Below, in pieces: positions 23,235 to 31,893 of a stretch of DNA of 32,190 nucleotides (position 1 is the first letter of the stretch; every line of letters starts with the position of its first letter). A program made the position numbers and the translations under genes. The notes under the pieces were generated by a model, which was not told the DNA's origin, ran no database searches, and saw nothing but the letters and a program-made list of their open reading frames with translations. The stretch lies in the sequence record SRR31156797_2845. One strand, written 5' to 3'.

Positions 23235-23624
23235 TCAGTCTTTAATGATTTCAATAATTTCAGTGGTCGAGATAGAAGGAGTTCTTTCCAAATAAACAAC
23301 TTCGCAAAGTGATTTGAATTCATCAAATCTACCTTCCCAGTCGTTTCCCATTACCAAAACATCCGCATTGAATTGTTTGATATAATCGCCCTTCAATTCC
23401 AAAGATTCTTCATAAAACACTTCATCAACCACTTTTAATGATTCAATGATTCGCATTCTATCTTTTTCGGAATAGATAGGATTTTTCTGTTTTTTGGAGA
23501 AGTTTAAAGCATCGGTTGAGATGCCAACAATTAAGTAATCACCTTCAGCTCTGGCACGTTCCAGAATTCGTAAATGTCCGATGTGAAATAAATCAAATGT
23601 GCCAAAAGTAATTACTCGTTTCAT
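23235..23624 (-). CDS. tagD: Glycerol-3-phosphate cytidylyltransferase (TagD-like)
   Basis: TFGTFDLFHIGH, MGNDW, RTPSISTT; ATG at 23624. Confidence 0.85.
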   Translation of the reverse strand: MKRVITFGTFDLFHIGHLRILERARAEGDYLIVGISTDALNFSKKQKNPIYSEKDRMRIIESLKVVDEVFYEESLELKGDYIKQFNADVLVMGNDWEGRFDEFKSLCEVVYLERTPSISTTEIIEIIKD

Positions 23625-23726
23625 GTGTTTAAGTTTATTTTTCAATGGTCACAATGGAACTCACAAATAAATTTAATCATCCTCAATGTGTCAATTTGGA
23701 TAATTAAATTTGCATGCTCGTTTCAT
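23618..23726 (-). ncRNA. Putative structured 5' leader, copy 1 (upstream of tagD)
   Basis: High similarity to 30129-30240; stem 23669-23682/23698-23711. Confidence 0.55.
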
Positions 23727-23735
23727 ATTCTTTTT

Positions 23736-24971
23736 TTATTGGTTCTTGCGAAGATAATGTTCTTGAATGAAATTAAAAATTCTCTGAGAACTGTTCGCAT
23801 CAATATTGTCGTACGATTTCTCGATTATTTCACCTCTTTTTTCTTTAAATTGATCTTCATCATTAAAAGTAGACAAGAGATCTTCCTCTAATTTGTTTTG
23901 ATCGGTAGAAATTGGTCCAACTATAAAATCGTTAAAGAAGGTATGTAACTCGCGATCCTTAGTCTCATACTTTTCTCTATCGTACAAAAGGAAGAAAATT
24001 GGGCGATTCAGTAGAATGTAATCCATATAGATGGATGAATAATCGCTGATCATGGCGTCAACTTCAGGAAGAAAAGGATACACATCCTTCACATTATCAT
24101 ACCATAAAATTCTTTCAAATTCACCTGATATGGATTTGTATTGAGGCAGTGGATGCAATTTGAAAACAAAAACCAGATCATGCTCTAAGGCAAATTGATT
24201 CATTCTTTCCAAATCCAAAATTCTATCAGAAATTCCATCACCACCGGTATCACGAAAAGTGGGAGCGTAAAGAATGGATTTAGTACCATTCTTGCGCATT
24301 TTGGCAACTTTATTAATTGTCTCTACATCTGAATTAATCAGTGCATTCTTGTATTTTTTTGGATCAACAATTACATCGTTTCTTGGATATCCGGTATCGA
24401 TAAAATGATCCGAAAGAAAAGCTGGCTTAAAAAACTCTTTGGTAAAGAAAGCTCCCGTTGAAATCAGTGCCTGATACTTCGGCAATTTTCCTACGAAATT
24501 CAGAATGAATCGACGGTACAAAGAGCTGGTTTCCTGAATAAAAAACTTATTGCTTCTCTGTATTTTTTTAAATCCGATTCCGTGCCAAATCTGAATGATT
24601 TTAGCTCTCCAGAACAACTGAAAACGACAATTGTCCATCCACGAAAAATTATCAACAACAAACACTCTACTTCGTAGCATAATCCAATATGCTTTAGCCG
24701 TAGGGTAATAGAGAATATTGCTGTATTCAGCTTTTAAAGTTTCGTAAGTTTCTTTGTTTGCCGTAAGTAGGTAGAATTCCTGATCCTTTTTTTCTTCTGC
24801 CAGGTAAAGAAAAAAGAACTTCACATTATCAATGAAGAAACCATCTTTTGCGCCCATAAGTACCATCAAATTCTTTTTTTTAGGAATCAGATAGGTAAGT
24901 GGAACAATAAAGATCCAACCCAAAAGAGTTGTAAGAAAAATTACCGGCTTAGAGTATTTATTTAGGTTCAT
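23736..24971 (-). CDS. CDP-glycerol glycerophosphotransferase (TagB/TagF family)
   Basis: QIWHG, GYPRND, YAPTFRD, KLHP, ISDYSS. Confidence 0.9.
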   Translation of the reverse strand: MNLNKYSKPVIFLTTLLGWIFIVPLTYLIPKKKNLMVLMGAKDGFFIDNVKFFFLYLAEEKKDQEFYLLTANKETYETLKAEYSNILYYPTAKAYWIMLRSRVFVVDNFSWMDNCRFQLFWRAKIIQIWHGIGFKKIQRSNKFFIQETSSLYRRFILNFVGKLPKYQALISTGAFFTKEFFKPAFLSDHFIDTGYPRNDVIVDPKKYKNALINSDVETINKVAKMRKNGTKSILYAPTFRDTGGDGISDRILDLERMNQFALEHDLVFVFKLHPLPQYKSISGEFERILWYDNVKDVYPFLPEVDAMISDYSSIYMDYILLNRPIFFLLYDREKYETKDRELHTFFNDFIVGPISTDQNKLEEDLLSTFNDEDQFKEKRGEIIEKSYDNIDANSSQRIFNFIQEHYLRKNQ

Positions 24972-26195
24972 TTAATTCAATTTTCGGATTTCATTGTACA
25001 CTCTTTCGCAACTATAGGCATCCTGATGGGTGTGGTACAGATCTCTTATTTTTTTGCGCCACTTTGCATGAGTCTGTGGTTGTTCAAAATACCTGCTTAA
25101 ATGGGTGATAAACTCTTTTTGCGTACTTGGTTTTGCACCTGGAGTATTAGCCTCGAAATCGATAAAAAAGCCTTTGTATTGGCTGTATTCTTCCAAATCG
25201 TATGGCAAATACACAATAGGTCTATCCATTAGCAAATAATCAATCCAAAGCGAAGAATAATCCGTTACCAAAATATCTACGTAAGGCAACAATTGATACA
25301 CATCTTCAAATCTATCCTGATCGGCTTTAATTACTCTATCTATGGAGAAAAAGTCGTGTGTTTTTTCAACAGTTTTTCTTTTGATATCTTCTTTGTGACC
25401 ACGAACTAAAATGTAGGCATCCTCTTTTTCCAAATATTTAGAAAGTTGATCCGCATCAAAATCCTCAAAAGGGAAGAAGTGAGTCTTGTGTCCTTCCTCG
25501 CGCCAGGTTGGAGCATAAAGAATAATCTTTCGATCTAGAAATGGATTTTTTAGAAGCAAGTCAGTATTCAAATTGAACTCTTTCAACAAATAATCGTTAC
25601 GAGGCAATCCGCTTACCCAAACATTATCCATATCGATATTAAAACCAGCCGCGTGAATAATCTGTTCAAGAGGTGAACTACCTGCCATGTAAGAGTATTT
25701 TTGCAATTGTTTTTCTTTGCCATATTTTCTCCAAACCGGAGTTTGTAAACCCATTTTTTTCATTGGAGTTCCATGTCCCAGGTAGATGATATTTTTGAAT
25801 TTTTCGTGCAAGTAATAAGGTGCAAAAGCAGCTGCGCTTATTCCGTAGGATATGATTACATGTTTCGATCGAAGAAACAGAAAGAATCCTTTTAACGAGT
25901 GTGCATAAACCACTTCTCCTGGAAAAGTTTCCTGTAATTTTCGATATAAGTTCTTATTTGGAGTGAATAGAATGCTATTAAAATCGTTCTTTTCGCGCAT
26001 GTATTCGAATTGGTATTTCGAATTGTCGAAAAAGAACTTCTCTGTGAGAAAAAACAATGCAATGCGTTTGTTCTTGCGTACTATTAATTCCAGAAAGAAA
26101 TAGAACCACCGCATGATAAACAAACTAATGTGCAAAAGAACAATCTTCTGCATAAAGTTGACAAATTGTTGTCTTCTTGAATAAGCTCTACTCAT
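24972..26195 (-). CDS. CDP-glycerol glycerophosphotransferase (TagB/TagF family)
   Basis: LGHGTPMKK, GLPRND, YAPTWRE, VTDYSS. Confidence 0.9.
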   Translation of the reverse strand: MSRAYSRRQQFVNFMQKIVLLHISLFIMRWFYFFLELIVRKNKRIALFFLTEKFFFDNSKYQFEYMREKNDFNSILFTPNKNLYRKLQETFPGEVVYAHSLKGFFLFLRSKHVIISYGISAAAFAPYYLHEKFKNIIYLGHGTPMKKMGLQTPVWRKYGKEKQLQKYSYMAGSSPLEQIIHAAGFNIDMDNVWVSGLPRNDYLLKEFNLNTDLLLKNPFLDRKIILYAPTWREEGHKTHFFPFEDFDADQLSKYLEKEDAYILVRGHKEDIKRKTVEKTHDFFSIDRVIKADQDRFEDVYQLLPYVDILVTDYSSLWIDYLLMDRPIVYLPYDLEEYSQYKGFFIDFEANTPGAKPSTQKEFITHLSRYFEQPQTHAKWRKKIRDLYHTHQDAYSCERVYNEIRKLN

Positions 26196-28797
26196 TTTCC
26201 TTCTTCAATTTTAATGCTCCAAAAACAACTCCTCCAGCTAGTAATACAAAGAAAAGTATCATACTTGCCAAAGAAATTTTCTCACCTGTGAAATATCCTT
26301 TTGGTTCAAATTTGAACTCAATTTGGTGTTTCCCTGAAGGTAGCTTCATTCCGCGTAACACGTAGTTCGCTCTGAAATGATTGGCTGGTTTTCCATCGAT
26401 ATAGGCATTCCATCCTGGCTGATAATACATCTCAGAGAAGATAGCCAATTGTTCTGATTTAGCCTGGTAATTGTAAGTAATGCTATTTGGAGAATACTTT
26501 GCCATTTGAATCCCTGCAGTTGAATCTGTAACAATATTCAATCCATTTAGTTGATCTTCGAAACGCTTATCAACGATAGCTTCTTTAGCAGGATCAATGG
26601 CATTCAGAATCATGATTTCTTCATTGGCATCCTTCACAATTTTGTAGGAATCTACCAACCAGGCATTACCTAAAGCATCAGGATTGATAGCAGCTTGCAT
26701 GCCTTTTTCCCCTTGAGTGATTACATATCGGGTGTTTAGCATGTTCAGAACCTTACGGTTTCCTTTTTCGATATGGTAATCGTACAATTCCTGAATGCGA
26801 CGCAACTTGGCACCATGATAACCACCAATTGATTTGTGGAAATAAGATGTTCGTGCACTTTGGAAAGGAGAGCCTGCCTGCTCGAAAACTCTGTAGTTGG
26901 TATTGTAGGTAATTGCCCACAATTGAGCAGCAACTTTTTCGTAATCGCTAGCTTTTCTATTCTTGCGAGTATATTCAGCTAATGCTTGATTGGCTACAGC
27001 TTGTAATTCAGGATGATTTCTCAATTCGGTTTGCAGGATCTGGTAATCTGCCATATTTGGCATGTAAGCCAGGTTTAAATCTTTTTTCTCTACAAAATTA
27101 TCGTTGGTAGTAAAACGCTTGTTAACCGGATAAAGATCAACAATAACTAAAAGAATAATTGCCGGGATAAAGAATTTTGTTTTCAGATACCCCTTCGAAA
27201 AGGCAAATAAACACGCTAAACCTAAACCAATGAATAGCAAACTTCTTAACGCATCCGCTTTAAAAATATCAATACGGGCATCTACTAAATCATTCTGTAT
27301 TTCTGATATAAATGCCAAAGCATTAGGATTCGATGATTTTATTTGAGCAAAGTAGTTTTGCTCCATATCACTAAGGAAATCGAGTCCCATTGTAGGCATT
27401 ACATAAAGAAGTAAAGCTACTCCTCCGGTTAATACAAATGGCAACACAAGTACATTTACTTTGTATGAGGAGATGGCTATTTTTCTTTTTAGAACTTCTG
27501 GCTCATCGATGATTTTCTTCAAAGCTAAAATCGCTAATAATGGAACACAAAGCTCTACGATGATTAGGATAGATGATACAGCTCTAAATTTGTTGTAAAG
27601 AGGAACGTAATCGAAAAAGATACCAGTAAGTGCCTGGAAATTGTGCCCCCAGGAGAGCATGATTGCCAATATGGTTGCTGTCAACAATCCCCATTTCAAT
27701 CGTCCGCCAACAATAAAGATTCCCAATACAAACAAGAACATGATAAATGCACCAAGATATACAGGACCAACAGTAAATGGTTGATTTCCCCAATAATGAT
27801 GGTTATCAACCTGCTCCATATCGTAATAATCCGATACTTTCTGAATTTGACCGCCGTTTATGTAGTTCAAAATCTGCATTCCTTCCTGAGGTGATCCGCC
27901 ACCACCTTTTACATTCGGAATTAAAAGACTTAAAGTCTCCTGAATACCATAACTCCACTGCGTACCATAGTCTTTATCAACACCACCGGTTTTATTGTCT
28001 TTATTACCAAGTGTTAGTTCCGATTTGCCACGAATGGTGGATTTTGTATAATCGTAGGAGTTATATAGGTTGGTAAAGTTTACACCCAAGGCAATTACTG
28101 ATGCAATTGCAAGTACACCAATGGCTTTGAAAAAGTGTTTCAGGTTCTTCTCCTTCAATTGGTGATAGAATTCGAATATCAGGATACAGAAAACCATGAT
28201 CACAAAATAATAGGTCATCTGAATGTGATTGGCATACAATTCCATGATCAGGAAGAAACCTGCAATCAATCCACCCAAGAGATATTTTCCCCTGAAAACT
28301 AGTAATATCCCCGCAAGGGCAGGAGGGATGAACGCCAGTGCATTCACTTTCCAGAGGTGACCGGCACCAATAATAATAATGAAATAGGTAGAAAAGGCAT
28401 AGGCTACGGCTCCTGCAATAGAGAGCCATGGATTCACCCTTAAGCTGATCAGAAGAATATAAAAACCAATCATGTATAAAATCAGGAACTTTACTGGATC
28501 AGGAGTATAAAGCTCCATCATCTGTTTGAATGTATACATGTCTTTTGCACGATAATCCACATTGATGTGATAGGATGGCATTCCACCAAACATGGAGTTG
28601 GTCCAAAGTGCATCTTCACCGGTTTGATTACGGTAATCAACAATTTCTTTTTTGGCACCCCAGGCATTTATAGAATCACCTTTTTTATAGACTTTCCCTT
28701 CCAAAGCTGGCTGGAAATAAATGAATCCTATGATTAAAAAGATGATGATAGAGACCAGGTGTGGTAATGCTGATTTAAATATCGACTTAAAGTTCAT
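26188..28797 (-). CDS. YfhO-family polytopic membrane protein (GT-C-like)
   Basis: LWTNSMFGGMP, ANHIQMTYY, YWGNQPFT, SIGGYHGAK, FSEMYY..GW..YIDG; ATG at 28797. Confidence 0.85.
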   Translation of the reverse strand: MNFKSIFKSALPHLVSIIIFLIIGFIYFQPALEGKVYKKGDSINAWGAKKEIVDYRNQTGEDALWTNSMFGGMPSYHINVDYRAKDMYTFKQMMELYTPDPVKFLILYMIGFYILLISLRVNPWLSIAGAVAYAFSTYFIIIIGAGHLWKVNALAFIPPALAGILLVFRGKYLLGGLIAGFFLIMELYANHIQMTYYFVIMVFCILIFEFYHQLKEKNLKHFFKAIGVLAIASVIALGVNFTNLYNSYDYTKSTIRGKSELTLGNKDNKTGGVDKDYGTQWSYGIQETLSLLIPNVKGGGGSPQEGMQILNYINGGQIQKVSDYYDMEQVDNHHYWGNQPFTVGPVYLGAFIMFLFVLGIFIVGGRLKWGLLTATILAIMLSWGHNFQALTGIFFDYVPLYNKFRAVSSILIIVELCVPLLAILALKKIIDEPEVLKRKIAISSYKVNVLVLPFVLTGGVALLLYVMPTMGLDFLSDMEQNYFAQIKSSNPNALAFISEIQNDLVDARIDIFKADALRSLLFIGLGLACLFAFSKGYLKTKFFIPAIILLVIVDLYPVNKRFTTNDNFVEKKDLNLAYMPNMADYQILQTELRNHPELQAVANQALAEYTRKNRKASDYEKVAAQLWAITYNTNYRVFEQAGSPFQSARTSYFHKSIGGYHGAKLRRIQELYDYHIEKGNRKVLNMLNTRYVITQGEKGMQAAINPDALGNAWLVDSYKIVKDANEEIMILNAIDPAKEAIVDKRFEDQLNGLNIVTDSTAGIQMAKYSPNSITYNYQAKSEQLAIFSEMYYQPGWNAYIDGKPANHFRANYVLRGMKLPSGKHQIEFKFEPKGYFTGEKISLASMILFFVLLAGGVVFGALKLKKENE

Positions 28798-28902
28798 TAT
28801 CGTGTGTGTTTTTGCAGATTCTATTTTAAAGCCCCTAAAATACAAAAAGCACAGAACAAAATTGCCCTGTGCTTCACTTAATATTTTCTATTGTGGTTTT
28901 GC

Positions 28903-30135
28903 TTATTTCTCCATAAACGGTTTCACGTTCAGCATTCCACTATATGTTTCGATTGTATATTTATCTAACCAATTGTAGAACTCTTCAATTTCTTTTTTAT
29001 CAGCTTTAGCTGAGCGCCATTTCTGTTGATGAATTTCTGTGTTTTTGAAAAGTTTCTCTTCAGCCAATTCCAATTTTTGAATGATACCGGTTTTTTCAGC
29101 ATTAATCAATTCCGAAACTTTCAAATACTTGTATCCAGCCGAACGACTAATAGGATAGCACTTGCTTTTTAACTCCATCGACATGGCATTCAGTGGGCAG
29201 TTTTCTTTTCCTTCAGCCAATAATACTTTAGGAAGATTTTTGCCACCTCTTACCCAAACAGGCAATGCGATGGATGTATTTGGAAAACCAACCTGAGTCC
29301 AGATGGTTGCCATATCCTTGGCTTCGCCTTCTTTAACTCCTTCAATCATGATCATTGATGAAGAACCGTGACGAGTAATTAAATCACCAGAATTCACAAA
29401 GTTTTCGCCATAAGGAACTGTTTCGAACTCTTTTCTGAAATCACGTTTTAAAACAGGATGTTTCAAACATCTCGAGAAGTTTTGGATTACGGTTTTGGCG
29501 CTCATATCGCCACAAGCATCAGCCTGGTAAAAGATATCCTGAGCAGTTTGGAAACGGATAAATCCATAGCCAATATCTTTTTTACCAGTAAACGAGTAGT
29601 TGGTTCTTAGAATATAACCATTAGGAGCTTGAGCCGGATCGTTGGCATCAAACTTGGTAAAGGTTTGGTTGTTTACCTCGTAGAAAGCAACATTACCATC
29701 GGCATCTAACACGCCAAAGTGTGCCGCTAAACCCATTGGTTTTGGAGTATCTTTCATTAATTGCTCAAATTCTTCCAGGTTGGCACATTTTTGCAATGCC
29801 AATTTCATAAACTTCCCTTCCTGATCTTTCAAAGAAGTAGTGTCCTTCATATTCACATTAAAAGAAGCAGAATTCATGATGGCGAATCCCATTGAGTTGG
29901 AACCACCCCAAACGTTTTCCCCTTTTTCATCCTTGGAATTGATCAAGCCAATGTATGGATATTTTCCATCTGTGAAATACATCATCTTGTTTTCGAAGCT
30001 TTCAGTATCGCGAAGCTTCCAAATCATAGGACGACCATCTTTGGTGTATTTGCCAGAAATTACGGCAGTTGTACAAGCATCAGCTTGCCATACGCTTACT
30101 ACTACAAGTAGTAATAGAGTTAAGAGTTGTTTCAT
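28903..30135 (-). CDS. Secreted Ntn-hydrolase (C45/C69-like, N-terminal nucleophile Cys)
   Basis: Signal peptide then ADA|CTTAVISGKYTKDGRPMIWKLRD; RTNYS motif. Confidence 0.75.
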   Translation of the reverse strand: MKQLLTLLLLVVVSVWQADACTTAVISGKYTKDGRPMIWKLRDTESFENKMMYFTDGKYPYIGLINSKDEKGENVWGGSNSMGFAIMNSASFNVNMKDTTSLKDQEGKFMKLALQKCANLEEFEQLMKDTPKPMGLAAHFGVLDADGNVAFYEVNNQTFTKFDANDPAQAPNGYILRTNYSFTGKKDIGYGFIRFQTAQDIFYQADACGDMSAKTVIQNFSRCLKHPVLKRDFRKEFETVPYGENFVNSGDLITRHGSSSMIMIEGVKEGEAKDMATIWTQVGFPNTSIALPVWVRGGKNLPKVLLAEGKENCPLNAMSMELKSKCYPISRSAGYKYLKVSELINAEKTGIIQKLELAEEKLFKNTEIHQQKWRSAKADKKEIEEFYNWLDKYTIETYSGMLNVKPFMEK

Positions 30136-30240
30136 GTGTTTAAGTTATCTTTTAAAGGTCACATGGAACTCACAAATAAATTTGATCATCCTCTTGTGTG
30201 TCAATTTGGATAATCAAATTTTCATGTTCGTTTCATGTGT
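30129..30240 (-). ncRNA. Putative structured 5' leader, copy 2 (upstream of Ntn hydrolase gene)
   Basis: High similarity to 23618-23726; stem 30178-30191/30208-30221. Confidence 0.55.
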
Positions 30241-30320: not shown

Positions 30321-30709
30321 CACCCCTTCGCCTGTCGGCACTTCCCCTAAAAGGGGAAGACATTAATATTAACATTCTCCCCTTTTAGGTTCTTCTTTAT
30401 ACACAAATGTTGAACCCACTTTGGGTTCTTTGATTCGATTGTCAATACCACGGGTAAAACCCGTGGTTATTCCAATTAAACCACTTCGTGGTTTTCCAGG
30501 AGGAAAAATTACAGAATTTGAAAAGATTATATCATAGAATTTAGGTATCCCGGAGGGATTCAATATAAATAACCCCGCATGAAATGCGGGGTTATTTATG
30601 ACAGGTATATGAGGTTGAACCCCGAAGTGGGTTCAATGTCTTCTCTGTGATATGAAGAGATGTGTATAAAGAGTAGCCACCCAGGGGAAGTGCCGAAGGC
30701 GAAAGGGTG
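30321..30709. repeat. GC-rich REP-like inverted pair interrupted by an inserted element
   Basis: caccccttcgcctgtcggcacttcccct (30321-30348) is near reverse complement of aggggaagtgccgaaggcgaaagggtg (30683-30709). Confidence 0.75.
30410..30636. mobile_element. Non-autonomous REPIN/MITE-like element, copy A
   Basis: Terminal IR ttgaacccactt..gggttc / gaaccccgaagtgggttcaa; internal palindromes accacgggt..acccgtggt, aaaccac..gtggttt, ataaataaccccgcat..atgcggggttatttat; second copy at 31663-31893. Confidence 0.75.
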
Positions 30710-30749: not shown

Positions 30750-31550
30750 TTAATAATTGTTCCTCCTGTCTTCTCTAAAACGATATTCTTCTCGCACTTT
30801 ATGGATTAGGTCTGTATCGATTTCTCCAATGATAATATCTTCCTTGCTTTTTAAGGTGGTAGGAGAGGTATTGTAATCGATCCAGGGCGGACAAAAAATG
30901 GAATTGCCATATTTCTCTCCCGCTCGATTTAAACTGAGCATGTAAATTTGATTTTCCAATGCTCGGGTGATTATAAAATGATGCCAACTTGGAAAGCTGT
31001 TATCCTTATAAAAAGCAACCGGATGAATCAGGAAATCGATATTGTGTTCCAAAGCCAATTTGCGAGTCAGTTCTGGAAAACGCATGTCGTAACAGATAAT
31101 CATACCAATTGTAACGCCATTAATTTTGAAGCTAACAGTTTGATCTCCTCTTTGGAAATATTCCTTTTCTATGGAGTTGCCAAATTGTGCCATGTGCTGT
31201 TTGTTATAGACAGTTACCATCTCTCCTTCGGGATTGATAACAGCTTGGGATATGAAATATTTATCATCCTTTATTTGAGGAAATCCATAACAGATGTAGC
31301 AATTTTTCTCTTTGGCTATTGATGAAAAAAACTGAAAGCTATCCCCTGAAATATCTTCAGCTAAATCTTGTAAATTATCGAATGTTTCTCGAGAATATCC
31401 ACAGGTAAAGAGTTCTGGTAAAACTATCAGGTCAACATTTTCTAGTTTATCGATGATCTTCTTTGCCTGGAGCAGATTAGTATCTCTATCGGCTATAGTT
31501 TTAGCATCGATATTGTTGACTTGTATAGCAGCGAATTTGAGTTTGGGCAT
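30750..31550 (-). CDS. Carbon-nitrogen hydrolase (nitrilase/omega-amidase family)
   Basis: VLPELF, YNKQHM, ICYDMRFPE triad motifs, RALENQ; true start MPKLKF at 31550. Confidence 0.92.
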   Translation of the reverse strand: MPKLKFAAIQVNNIDAKTIADRDTNLLQAKKIIDKLENVDLIVLPELFTCGYSRETFDNLQDLAEDISGDSFQFFSSIAKEKNCYICYGFPQIKDDKYFISQAVINPEGEMVTVYNKQHMAQFGNSIEKEYFQRGDQTVSFKINGVTIGMIICYDMRFPELTRKLALEHNIDFLIHPVAFYKDNSFPSWHHFIITRALENQIYMLSLNRAGEKYGNSIFCPPWIDYNTSPTTLKSKEDIIIGEIDTDLIHKVREEYRFREDRRNNY

Positions 31551-31662
31551 GCTTGAAGAGATTAAAATGGTAAGCTTAAAGATAATGAAATTGAAAATTA
31601 TCTCATCTCCCTCATTAAGTTCGGGACTTTCTCCTTGAGGAACTACTCTTAAGACACAAATA

Positions 31663-31893
31663 TTGAACCCACTTCGGGGTTCTATGGTTTGATTACCAAA
31701 CACCACAGGTTTTACCCGTGGTTATTCAAATTAAACCACTCTGTGGTTTTCTATAAGGAAAAAATTACAAAATTTGAAAAGATTAAATCATAGAATTTAG
31801 GTATCCTGAAGGGATTTTATATAAATAACCCCGTATGAAATTCGGGGTGGATAAATGATAGATATATAAGACTGAACCCCGAAGTGGGTTCAA
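31663..31893. mobile_element. Non-autonomous REPIN/MITE-like element, copy B
   Basis: Perfect 20-bp terminal IR ttgaacccacttcggggttc / gaaccccgaagtgggttcaa; colinear with copy A including the AT-rich spacer aatttgaaaagatta.atcatagaatttaggtatcc. Confidence 0.75.

Follow-up and report, generated by a model that had tools for sequence, protein, structure and literature searches.

A stretch of 32,190 nucleotides from sequence record SRR31156797_2845 (hereafter the window, meaning the whole of the DNA that was analysed) contains two near-identical non-coding segments, one directly upstream of a gene for a TagD-like (glycerol-3-phosphate cytidylyltransferase-like) protein and the other directly upstream of a gene for a C45/Ntn-type hydrolase. 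A sequence-only reading of this DNA had presented these segments as a duplicated structured leader that co-regulates a glycerophosphate surface-polymer locus, and the coordinates, the minus strand and the gene labels on which it relied are borne out. The analysis reported here indicates that both segments are probably copies of a gene-less, non-autonomous repeat of Marinilabiliales, about 102 nt long, that inserts at the pentanucleotide ATGAA.

Copy 2 measures 101 nt (30136-30236, minus strand, which is its sense strand; nhmmer against the family profile, E = 5e-27) and spans from a 5′ ATGAAAC to the last base ahead of the true ATG (30135-30133, minus) of the C45/Ntn hydrolase gene (28903-30135, minus), whose product has a signal-peptide-like N-terminus (MKQLLTLLLLVVVS...). 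On the minus strand it is composed of the 5′ ATGAAAC (30236-30230), read here as a former start or “decoy”; a core hairpin (30178-30221) with a 14-bp stem (30208-30221 with 30178-30191) and a conserved 16-nt loop (30192-30207); a 3′ arm, GAGTTCCATGTGACC (30157-30171), complementary both to the 5′ ATGAAAC and to the 3′ end of the unit, CACATGAA; and an A-rich tail (30136-30156). The hydrolase start codon and the two bases after it (30131-30135, minus) repeat the ATGAA found at 30232-30236. Copy 1 is 102 nt long (23625-23726, minus, again the sense strand; E = 3.2e-23) and reaches up to the ATG (23624-23622, minus) of the tagD-like gene (23235-23624, minus), beginning 9 nt past the stop (23736) of a co-oriented TagF-like gene, inside an apparent operon. 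Its core hairpin occupies 23669-23711 on the minus strand (stem 23698-23711 with 23669-23682, loop 23683-23697), its 3′ arm carries a 1-nt insertion (CCATTGTG; 23647-23662, minus), and the ATGAA formed by the tagD-like start codon and the next two bases (23620-23624, minus) repeats that at 23722-23726. A mechanical ORF (open reading frame) call starts tagD at a TTG inside the copy 1 unit (23235-23645, minus, with the TTG at 23645); the ATG at 23624 is preferred, because the N-terminus of the protein family and the unit boundary both fit it.

The two copies, 6.5 kb apart in one gene cluster, share a common layout: an initial ATGAAAC, a 14-bp A/U-rich stem, a loop of 15-16 nt, a 3′ arm of the form GAGTTCCAT(.)TG and an A-rich tail that closes in AAACAC and is directly followed by the ATGAAAC of the gene. 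Their cores are 93-97% identical and their tails 77%, and one 18-mer and one 20-mer of the unit each have exactly two occurrences in the window, against chance expectations of 0.13 and 0.03. The predicted folding energy is -29.7 kcal/mol for copy 2 (z = -5.9), a value that none of 200 shuffles reached, and a weaker -19.6 kcal/mol for copy 1 (z = -1.9), which 6 of 200 shuffles equalled or bettered. The arm, GUUCCAU.UG, can pair either with the 5′ decoy ATGAAAC or with the true start, and for both window copies the prediction prefers the closed hairpin, which leaves the true start accessible (P 0.90 and 0.62). The sequence-only reading had seen a start-sequestering switch in both copies; the two alternative pairings are possible in copy 2, whose arm is complementary to both partners, but not in copy 1, in which the predicted probability of the arm:start helix is 0.004 because of the 1-nt insertion in the arm.

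Covariance models of Rfam, run over the whole window, gave at gathering score only a tRNA and nothing on either copy; at an E-value threshold seven matches appeared, the best with E = 0.34, all far under their gathering scores, in agreement with the sequence-only reading, which did not recognise a known riboswitch. A scan for sigma-70 promoters and terminators, which does not cover Bacteroidota promoters, placed no site inside either unit. Small ORFs within the unit were considered as coding sequences and set aside: the frame of the 5′ ATG (MKRT* or MKRTCKFDYPN*) and an internal frame (MIKFICEFHV...) vary in length and contain stops in common variants, as judged by eye.

The unit is widely dispersed in marine Bacteroidota, a genome having tens of copies or more. 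An 18-mer scan of genome contigs returned 26 loci, of which 14 hold a whole unit and 12 are chance matches by inspection; the 14 come from Marinifilum (L004), Carboxylicivirga, Saccharicrinis, Labilibacter and a Bacteroidales metagenome-assembled genome, and the named genera all belong to Marinilabiliales (taxonomy looked up for three). The Marinifilum locus hardly differs from copy 2 with its gene, an uncultured Marinifilum contig is nearly identical to the window as a whole, and both copies are in place on a single contig of run X7, from a relative about 95% identical. A BLAST search with copy 2, in which at most the best 40 candidates were scored per genome, found at least 50, 36, 47 and 11 matches in the Marinilabiliales genomes G002, G003, G004 and G005, respectively. 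Within the GTDB family of G002, the unit is present in 40 of the 121 genomes sampled (the best seven candidates scored per genome), and the complete genome G267 contains 40 exact 12-nt arm motifs, against 0-1 for a reversed control pattern. About ten of the matches in G002 lie 100-330 nt from contig ends, the assembly breaking at copies. Units also stand head to tail with a period of about 102 nt, in arrays of two to three with ATGAAA as the common junction, and a second sub-family has another core, its ends, arm and GCCA/UGGC mid-stem being those of the main family. Collections of plasmids and phages gave no match to the unit. A search with the tagD region in six genomes of the family of G112, the source of the best C45 homologue but not of the window's family, gave nothing.

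Insertions of 20-50 nt are nested within some units (L005, L020, L026, L042, L050, L165; L012, L025). They are of two types, GC-rich hairpins of 20-25 nt in the loop or after the arm, and an insert of about 50 nt in the 3′ stem arm that recurs across genomes.

The boundaries of the unit were drawn from an alignment of 93 units (A2), in which the 5′ ATGAAA is invariant (93/93). The 3′ ATGAA is invariant as well, and at the sixth position the 73 terminal units have A (64), T (6) or G (3); since this base varies, the unit is bounded by ATGAA and the sixth base is that of the host gene. No terminal inverted repeats are apparent by eye in the consensus, whose 5′ end, (A)CGAnCATG..., bears no resemblance to its 3′ end, ...TTTAAACAn, once the latter is reverse-complemented. 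An empty site in genome G263 reads AATAAATCAT ATGAAA TTTACATTC (...AAATCAT/ATGAAA/..., with a single ATGAAA), and the filled site in G252 has the same flanks (94% identical) with two units, each followed by ATGAAA. A direct repeat of ATGAA(A) thus borders the unit on both edges where the empty site has one copy, an arrangement that insertion 3′ of ATGAA with no duplication would explain just as well. A joint between positions 30140 and 30328 in a contig of run X2 was considered as a further empty site, and was left unused because it has only 30 letters on one side. At three more orthologous starts the presence of the unit differs among G267, G252, G263, G240 and G237, the protein N-termini being kept (MKKILVFS..., MKKTIYINLNG... 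and MKNIII/MRNIII); the flanks at start codons with such presence/absence are 80-94% identical between relatives. Where G252 and G263 both hold a unit, the orthologous units are 78%, 92.5% and 86.5% identical and their flanks 94-98%. Presence/absence, divergence faster than that of the flanks and nested insertions are therefore the marks of a mobile, decaying repeat and not of a conserved leader, and individual copies seem to drift instead of being kept as regulators.

From all fetched loci, 133 distinct units were gathered, 129 of them with their 3′ end, of which 26 are followed by another unit and two run off the locus. Among the remaining 101 terminal units, 88 open an ORF of at least 50 aa with their own ATG and one has no ATG, and in all cases examined the unit lies in sense to the downstream ORF. 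Scattered copies in random orientation had been named beforehand as the sign of a generic repeat: the copies are indeed many and scattered, but all are in sense and most sit exactly on a start codon. The 5′ flanks of solo units are biased, with A at -2 in 69, a pyrimidine at -1 in 68 and C at -3 in 29 of 88, and unit orientation in G267 has no replichore bias when the origin is taken at dnaA (2.85 Mb, putative).

The downstream genes have little in common. A Pfam scan of 50 of the 83 distinct downstream proteins gave matches for 41, to many different families, and the genes include those for a rhodanese, a thiolase, an exonuclease III, glycoside hydrolases, sulfatases, a sigma-54 regulator and TonB receptors, among others. 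An association with downstream genes across relatives, which the sequence-only reading had proposed to look for, is thus not seen, the functions being unrelated. A crude hydrophobicity rule marks 56 of the 83 proteins as signal-peptide-like at the N-terminus, an excess that the preference for ATG-AAx (Met-Lys/Asn) starts alone would give. Homologues of the C45 hydrolase, found in 28 of 151 sampled genomes of the order (at most 63% identity), have the unit upstream at none of their 30 loci. The idea of a locus-specific regulator of a glycerophosphate polymer fails on these grounds together: the repeat is dispersed, stands before unrelated genes and before none of the 30 C45 loci, comes and goes at the same starts and decays fast.

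The covariation among homologues that had been anticipated is found, as raw counts over the 93 units. In the self-contained hairpin 89.5% of cells are paired, and in the core stem 92.6%, with compensatory pairs at three positions (UA 77/CG 8; CG 78/UA 11; AU 83/GC 5) and a conserved U.G in 73/93. The G-C to A-U change and the U.G wobble noticed between the window copies are real, and the structural reading as a whole gains from these family-wide counts; the pair that differs between the copies is the least constrained (GU 28, AU 23, GC 13, unpaired 28). Mismatched cells of the core stem are 120 G.T/T.G and 8 A.C/C.A, which bears out pairing on the sense strand only; the structure therefore acts on the sense strand, as single-stranded DNA or RNA, and not as a palindrome in duplex DNA. 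Conservation of the loop sequence is high.

The variable base of the arm is paired in 91 of the 93 units with the third base ahead of the true ATG (AU 33, GC 31, CG 25, GU/UG 2, unpaired 2), and with the 5′ flank in only 40 of 93. When Watson-Crick complementarity is counted in 76 solo units, the arm base matches the unit's own 3′ end in 69 and the 5′ flank base in 24, the latter being chance (shuffle mean 22.4, P = 0.38). With strong covariation on one side and chance on the other, the conserved helix is therefore that of the arm with the 3′ end, internal to the unit; the “decoy” helix rests solely on the invariant AUGAAAC and is not maintained by covariation. Of the earlier proposal that the arm pairs with either the decoy or the true start, it thus holds that both pairings are possible and that the arm covaries with the true-start region, but not that the decoy helix is kept. 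The arm as a guide for target choice was likewise discarded, given that the base ahead of the target ATG complements the arm base at chance only. In predictions for 81 units, each folded together with the 20 nt before it and the 30 nt after it, the state with a probability above 0.5 is arm:true start in 45, arm:old start in 29 and neither in 7, from which a bistable leader appears thermodynamically possible.

Under the preferred reading of a mobile repeat, insertion would be one-way, at or just 3′ of ATGAA, presumably the commonest gene start here and one typical of Lys-rich signal peptides. A unit that ends in ATGAA, or duplicates it, and brings an A-rich upstream tract would rebuild the start codon on which it landed; because of this rebuilding the gene would survive, and its old start would turn into the upstream “decoy.” The long hairpin would be a single-stranded structure of the sense strand, and the pairing of the internal arm with the unit's own 3′ end (CA-N′-ATGAA) would be kept by selection on transposing master copies. 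The mechanism is, by analogy, most likely of the HUH/Y1 style (IS200/IS605 or REP-RAYT, that is, repetitive extragenic palindromes with their associated tyrosine transposases), working on a single strand, specific for orientation and sequence, and in trans; we infer this because the units have a fixed orientation, a pentanucleotide target, no terminal inverted repeats, strand-specific hairpins and an internal arm that pairs with the ends. An inserted copy would necessarily become part of the DNA directly upstream of its gene, and as RNA it would be expected to have two possible folds, one that buries the old start and leaves the true start accessible, and one in which the arm pairs with the true start.

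A search for a parent element and a mobilising enzyme was made in the same genomes. In G267, which has 15 exact 5′ ends, no longer parent element sharing the 5′ end of the unit was found among the 14 inspected: seven pair with an exact arm motif at unit distance, and seven are ordinary units of about 100 nt by inspection (two in L134 and L135, and five more loci). Y1 HUH genes (PF01797) occur in 90 of the 121 family genomes, alike with and without the unit. A clade of 184-aa Y1-like proteins (MSRNYKFHNP...; L126, L114, L217-L228), multi-copy in some genomes, had been a candidate: about 30 genomes are clade-positive (about 68% identity or more) and 25 of them carry the unit, against 15 of about 91 clade-negative genomes, figures read from two tables in which phylogeny, genome size and shared ancestry are uncontrolled. 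As mobiliser of the unit the clade was ruled out on its differing flanking REPs, and it is kept solely as a lead.

Several points weigh against a mobile repeat. Neither a transposase, nor a circle junction, nor a new insertion was seen, and at 42 Y1_Tnp (PF01797) loci with 1.5 kb on either side, from the family sample and five unit-rich genomes, there were no units at E ≤ 1. The 184-aa Y1-like clade is flanked by its own, different GC-rich REP hairpins (GCTGCCGCACG...CGTGTGG) and therefore seems to form a REP-RAYT-like system of its own within these genomes. Twelve of the 101 terminal units open no ORF of at least 50 aa, as called mechanically. The loci were chosen from BLAST lists seeded with a window copy, by which diverged or oddly placed copies are under-sampled; the covariation counts are uncorrected for the relatedness of the copies; and the comparison of decay comprises three orthologous pairs only. 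Presence/absence could in part reflect precise loss instead of gain. Finally, covariation between the arm and the 3′ end spans the start codon region and fits an RNA start-sequestering helix equally well, and the two predicted states would look alike for a real switch.

These last points lead to the strongest rival, a host-selected family of cis-regulatory RNAs, each a bistable translational switch and the many copies together a large regulon, notably of genes for secreted proteins. We consider it unlikely, although the sense-strand-specific structure, the covariation of the arm with the start in 91 of 93 units, the predicted population of both folding states and the invariable position in sense directly upstream of an ATG all agree with it. 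The 56 signal-peptide-like proteins among 83 would also suit a secretion regulon, but an excess of this kind is expected from the ATGAA (Met-Lys) target alone, and downstream functions are otherwise unrelated. Contigs from RNA libraries hold unit-like sequence, and one of them joins the ATGAAA of a unit to another ORF; this is weak evidence of a leader, as the data are contigs covering small shares of the stretch (0.07-0.10), which do not show transcript ends or strand and in which DNA carry-over is possible. A regulator kept by the host sits badly with units that one relative has and another lacks at a given start codon (flanks 80-94% identical), with orthologous copies that diverge faster than their flanks, and with tandem arrays of two to three units, nested insertions and assembly breaks. 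Moreover, the “decoy” helix is not maintained, given that the arm shows no covariation with the 5′ flank base, and the arm:start helix is broken in window copy 1.

A module acting as double-stranded DNA, namely a transposed or duplicated Bacteroidota promoter with a palindromic operator for a transcription factor, in which the hairpin would be a binding site only, is very unlikely. It would account for the position of the units upstream of genes, for the highly conserved loop and for partial matches by eye (TAAATTTA, TTTATTTG) to TAnnTTTG, which we take to be the -7 motif consensus of Bacteroidota. A duplex palindrome nevertheless gives no reason for the excess of G.T over A.C in the core stem; the arms are 16 nt apart; copy 1 begins just 9 nt past a co-oriented gene in an apparent operon; and the sigma-70 scan, within its limits for Bacteroidota, saw no promoter-like site in the units. 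Local segmental duplication or gene conversion inside the polysaccharide locus, without wider meaning, as the 6.5-kb spacing within one cluster might suggest, has next to no chance of being right, being refuted by units of the family at many unrelated loci in other genera.

Some further features of the window and of the sampled loci deserve mention. A hairpin with a T-run (28846-28875, minus), resembling a terminator, separates the C45 hydrolase gene from a YfhO-like gene, and the hydrolase gene may therefore be transcribed on its own instead of heading the TagF/TagD operon. A hairpin region with GGGGAAG...CTTCCCC at about 30321-30390, a short way upstream of copy 2, is probably a dispersed short repeat of another kind; a 123-nt contig of run X7, with about twice the depth of the main contig, maps to 30321-30359 within it, and a similar motif follows a unit in L025. 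A direct repeat of about 245 nt (30394-30636 and 31647-31893, 83-91% identical, spacing about 1255 nt), with several small GC-rich hairpins, brackets an ORF for a carbon-nitrogen hydrolase (30750-31706, minus). In three of the 12 terminal units without an ORF (L184, L195, L215), the unit is followed by a recurrent sequence that starts with ATGAAACATCCATGGC and has no long ORF; this type of sequence may be a further sub-family missed by the profile.

If mobility holds, the element can settle, at small cost, on the base triplet at which a gene is most sensitive, rewrites the 5′ leaders of dozens of genes per genome across a whole bacterial family, and provides a natural system in which to test how Bacteroidota initiate translation independently of Shine-Dalgarno sequences. 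A more far-reaching version, to which we give only a small chance, is that a mobile element homing on start codons installs a ready-made bistable translation-initiation region, with the old AUG hidden in the hairpin, a new AUG supplied with an A-rich tract of the Bacteroidota style and an arm able to close over it. Dozens of genes per genome, mostly for secreted proteins, would then gain a common RNA switch that the host could exploit, and the element would spread by means of a guide-like arm and of an enzyme whose class has so far not been tied to targets of this kind. On the practical side, the units break assemblies and can mislead the annotation of start codons, as in the TTG call for tagD inside copy 1, and the two “leaders” of the window should not be taken as evidence for co-regulation of a teichoic-acid-like locus.

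Among known systems, the attC sites of integrons have a core and an inverse core (GTTRRRY and RYYYAAC) and form arrays after promoterless cassettes beside an integrase. The ends of the unit, ATGAAAC and GTTCCAT, are misfits to these cores by eye, and the units are dispersed ahead of ordinary genes; no search for an integrase was made. Rickettsia palindromic elements insert inside ORFs and are translated. Like them, the unit is a small palindromic mobile repeat that touches coding sequence and lets the reading frame survive, but it stays upstream and re-creates the start codon. With RNA thermometers and riboswitch expression platforms it shares a helix in which the AUG region pairs with an upstream anti-start arm and an alternative pairing that frees the AUG, but it lacks a ligand-binding core, an Rfam match, an association with a gene family or pathway, and conservation at orthologous loci.

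Miniature inverted-repeat transposable elements (MITEs) such as Correia/NEMIS, ERIC and RUP have terminal inverted repeats, insert in either orientation and use short targets such as TA. The unit resembles classical MITEs in its size class (about 100-150 nt) and in being non-coding, dispersed, presumably co-transcribed with its neighbours and potentially able to change adjacent expression. Of the features of DDE-type MITEs, it has a direct repeat of the target at both ends, and a longer autonomous element was not found in G267; it differs from classical and DDE-type MITEs in having no terminal inverted repeats and in being specific for orientation and start codon.

REPs are typically extragenic, with no fixed register to genes, whereas the unit has one orientation, sits exactly on ATGAA start codons and is bounded by the ATGAA repeat. 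It is otherwise much like the REP/REPIN-RAYT systems (REPINs being REP doublets), being a short, gene-less, high-copy, imperfect and strand-specific hairpin that forms clusters and sub-families and is presumably mobilised in trans on single-stranded DNA. In REP/REPIN-RAYT systems the palindrome carries a conserved GTAG or CGTC tag at one end, according to PMC3733652, and some Bacteroidetes Y1 subclasses are described in PMC6006769 as flanked by “atypical secondary structures,” of which the genome has further copies. For the unit, by contrast, none of the 42 Y1 loci has the gene flanked by it, and the Y1-like clade has other, GC-rich REPs.

Elements of the IS200/IS605 group of insertion sequences have no terminal inverted repeats, insert one way at a tetra- or pentanucleotide, form hairpins on one strand and recognise their cleavage sites by pairing with a guide. 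The unit is similar to them, and to the related palindrome-associated transposable elements (PATEs), in lacking terminal inverted repeats, in being oriented by ATGAA (93/93) and in having an internal arm that pairs with both of its ends. Some of the properties of the IS200/IS605 family are stated in PMC6006769. The unit appears to depart from IS200/IS605 and PATE in having one long central hairpin and an arm:3′-end helix where IS200/IS605 has two small subterminal hairpins. From IS200/IS605 it also differs in a guide-like arm of about nine Watson-Crick pairs across a loop of about 25 nt, in a 3′ end that is the target ATGAA, by which the interrupted start codon is restored, and in that no autonomous relative was found in G267; Y1 genes are present in the sampled genomes but unlinked to the unit. 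The literature yielded no repeat that targets a start codon in sense and repairs it, in a search that left most subscription journals and supplements outside, and a family of mobile hairpins occupying start codons is apparently undescribed. The unit fails at least one defining feature of each of the Rfam families, DDE-type MITEs, REP-RAYT systems and attC sites, and the closest working analogy would be an ORF-less element of the IS200/IS605 or REP kind.

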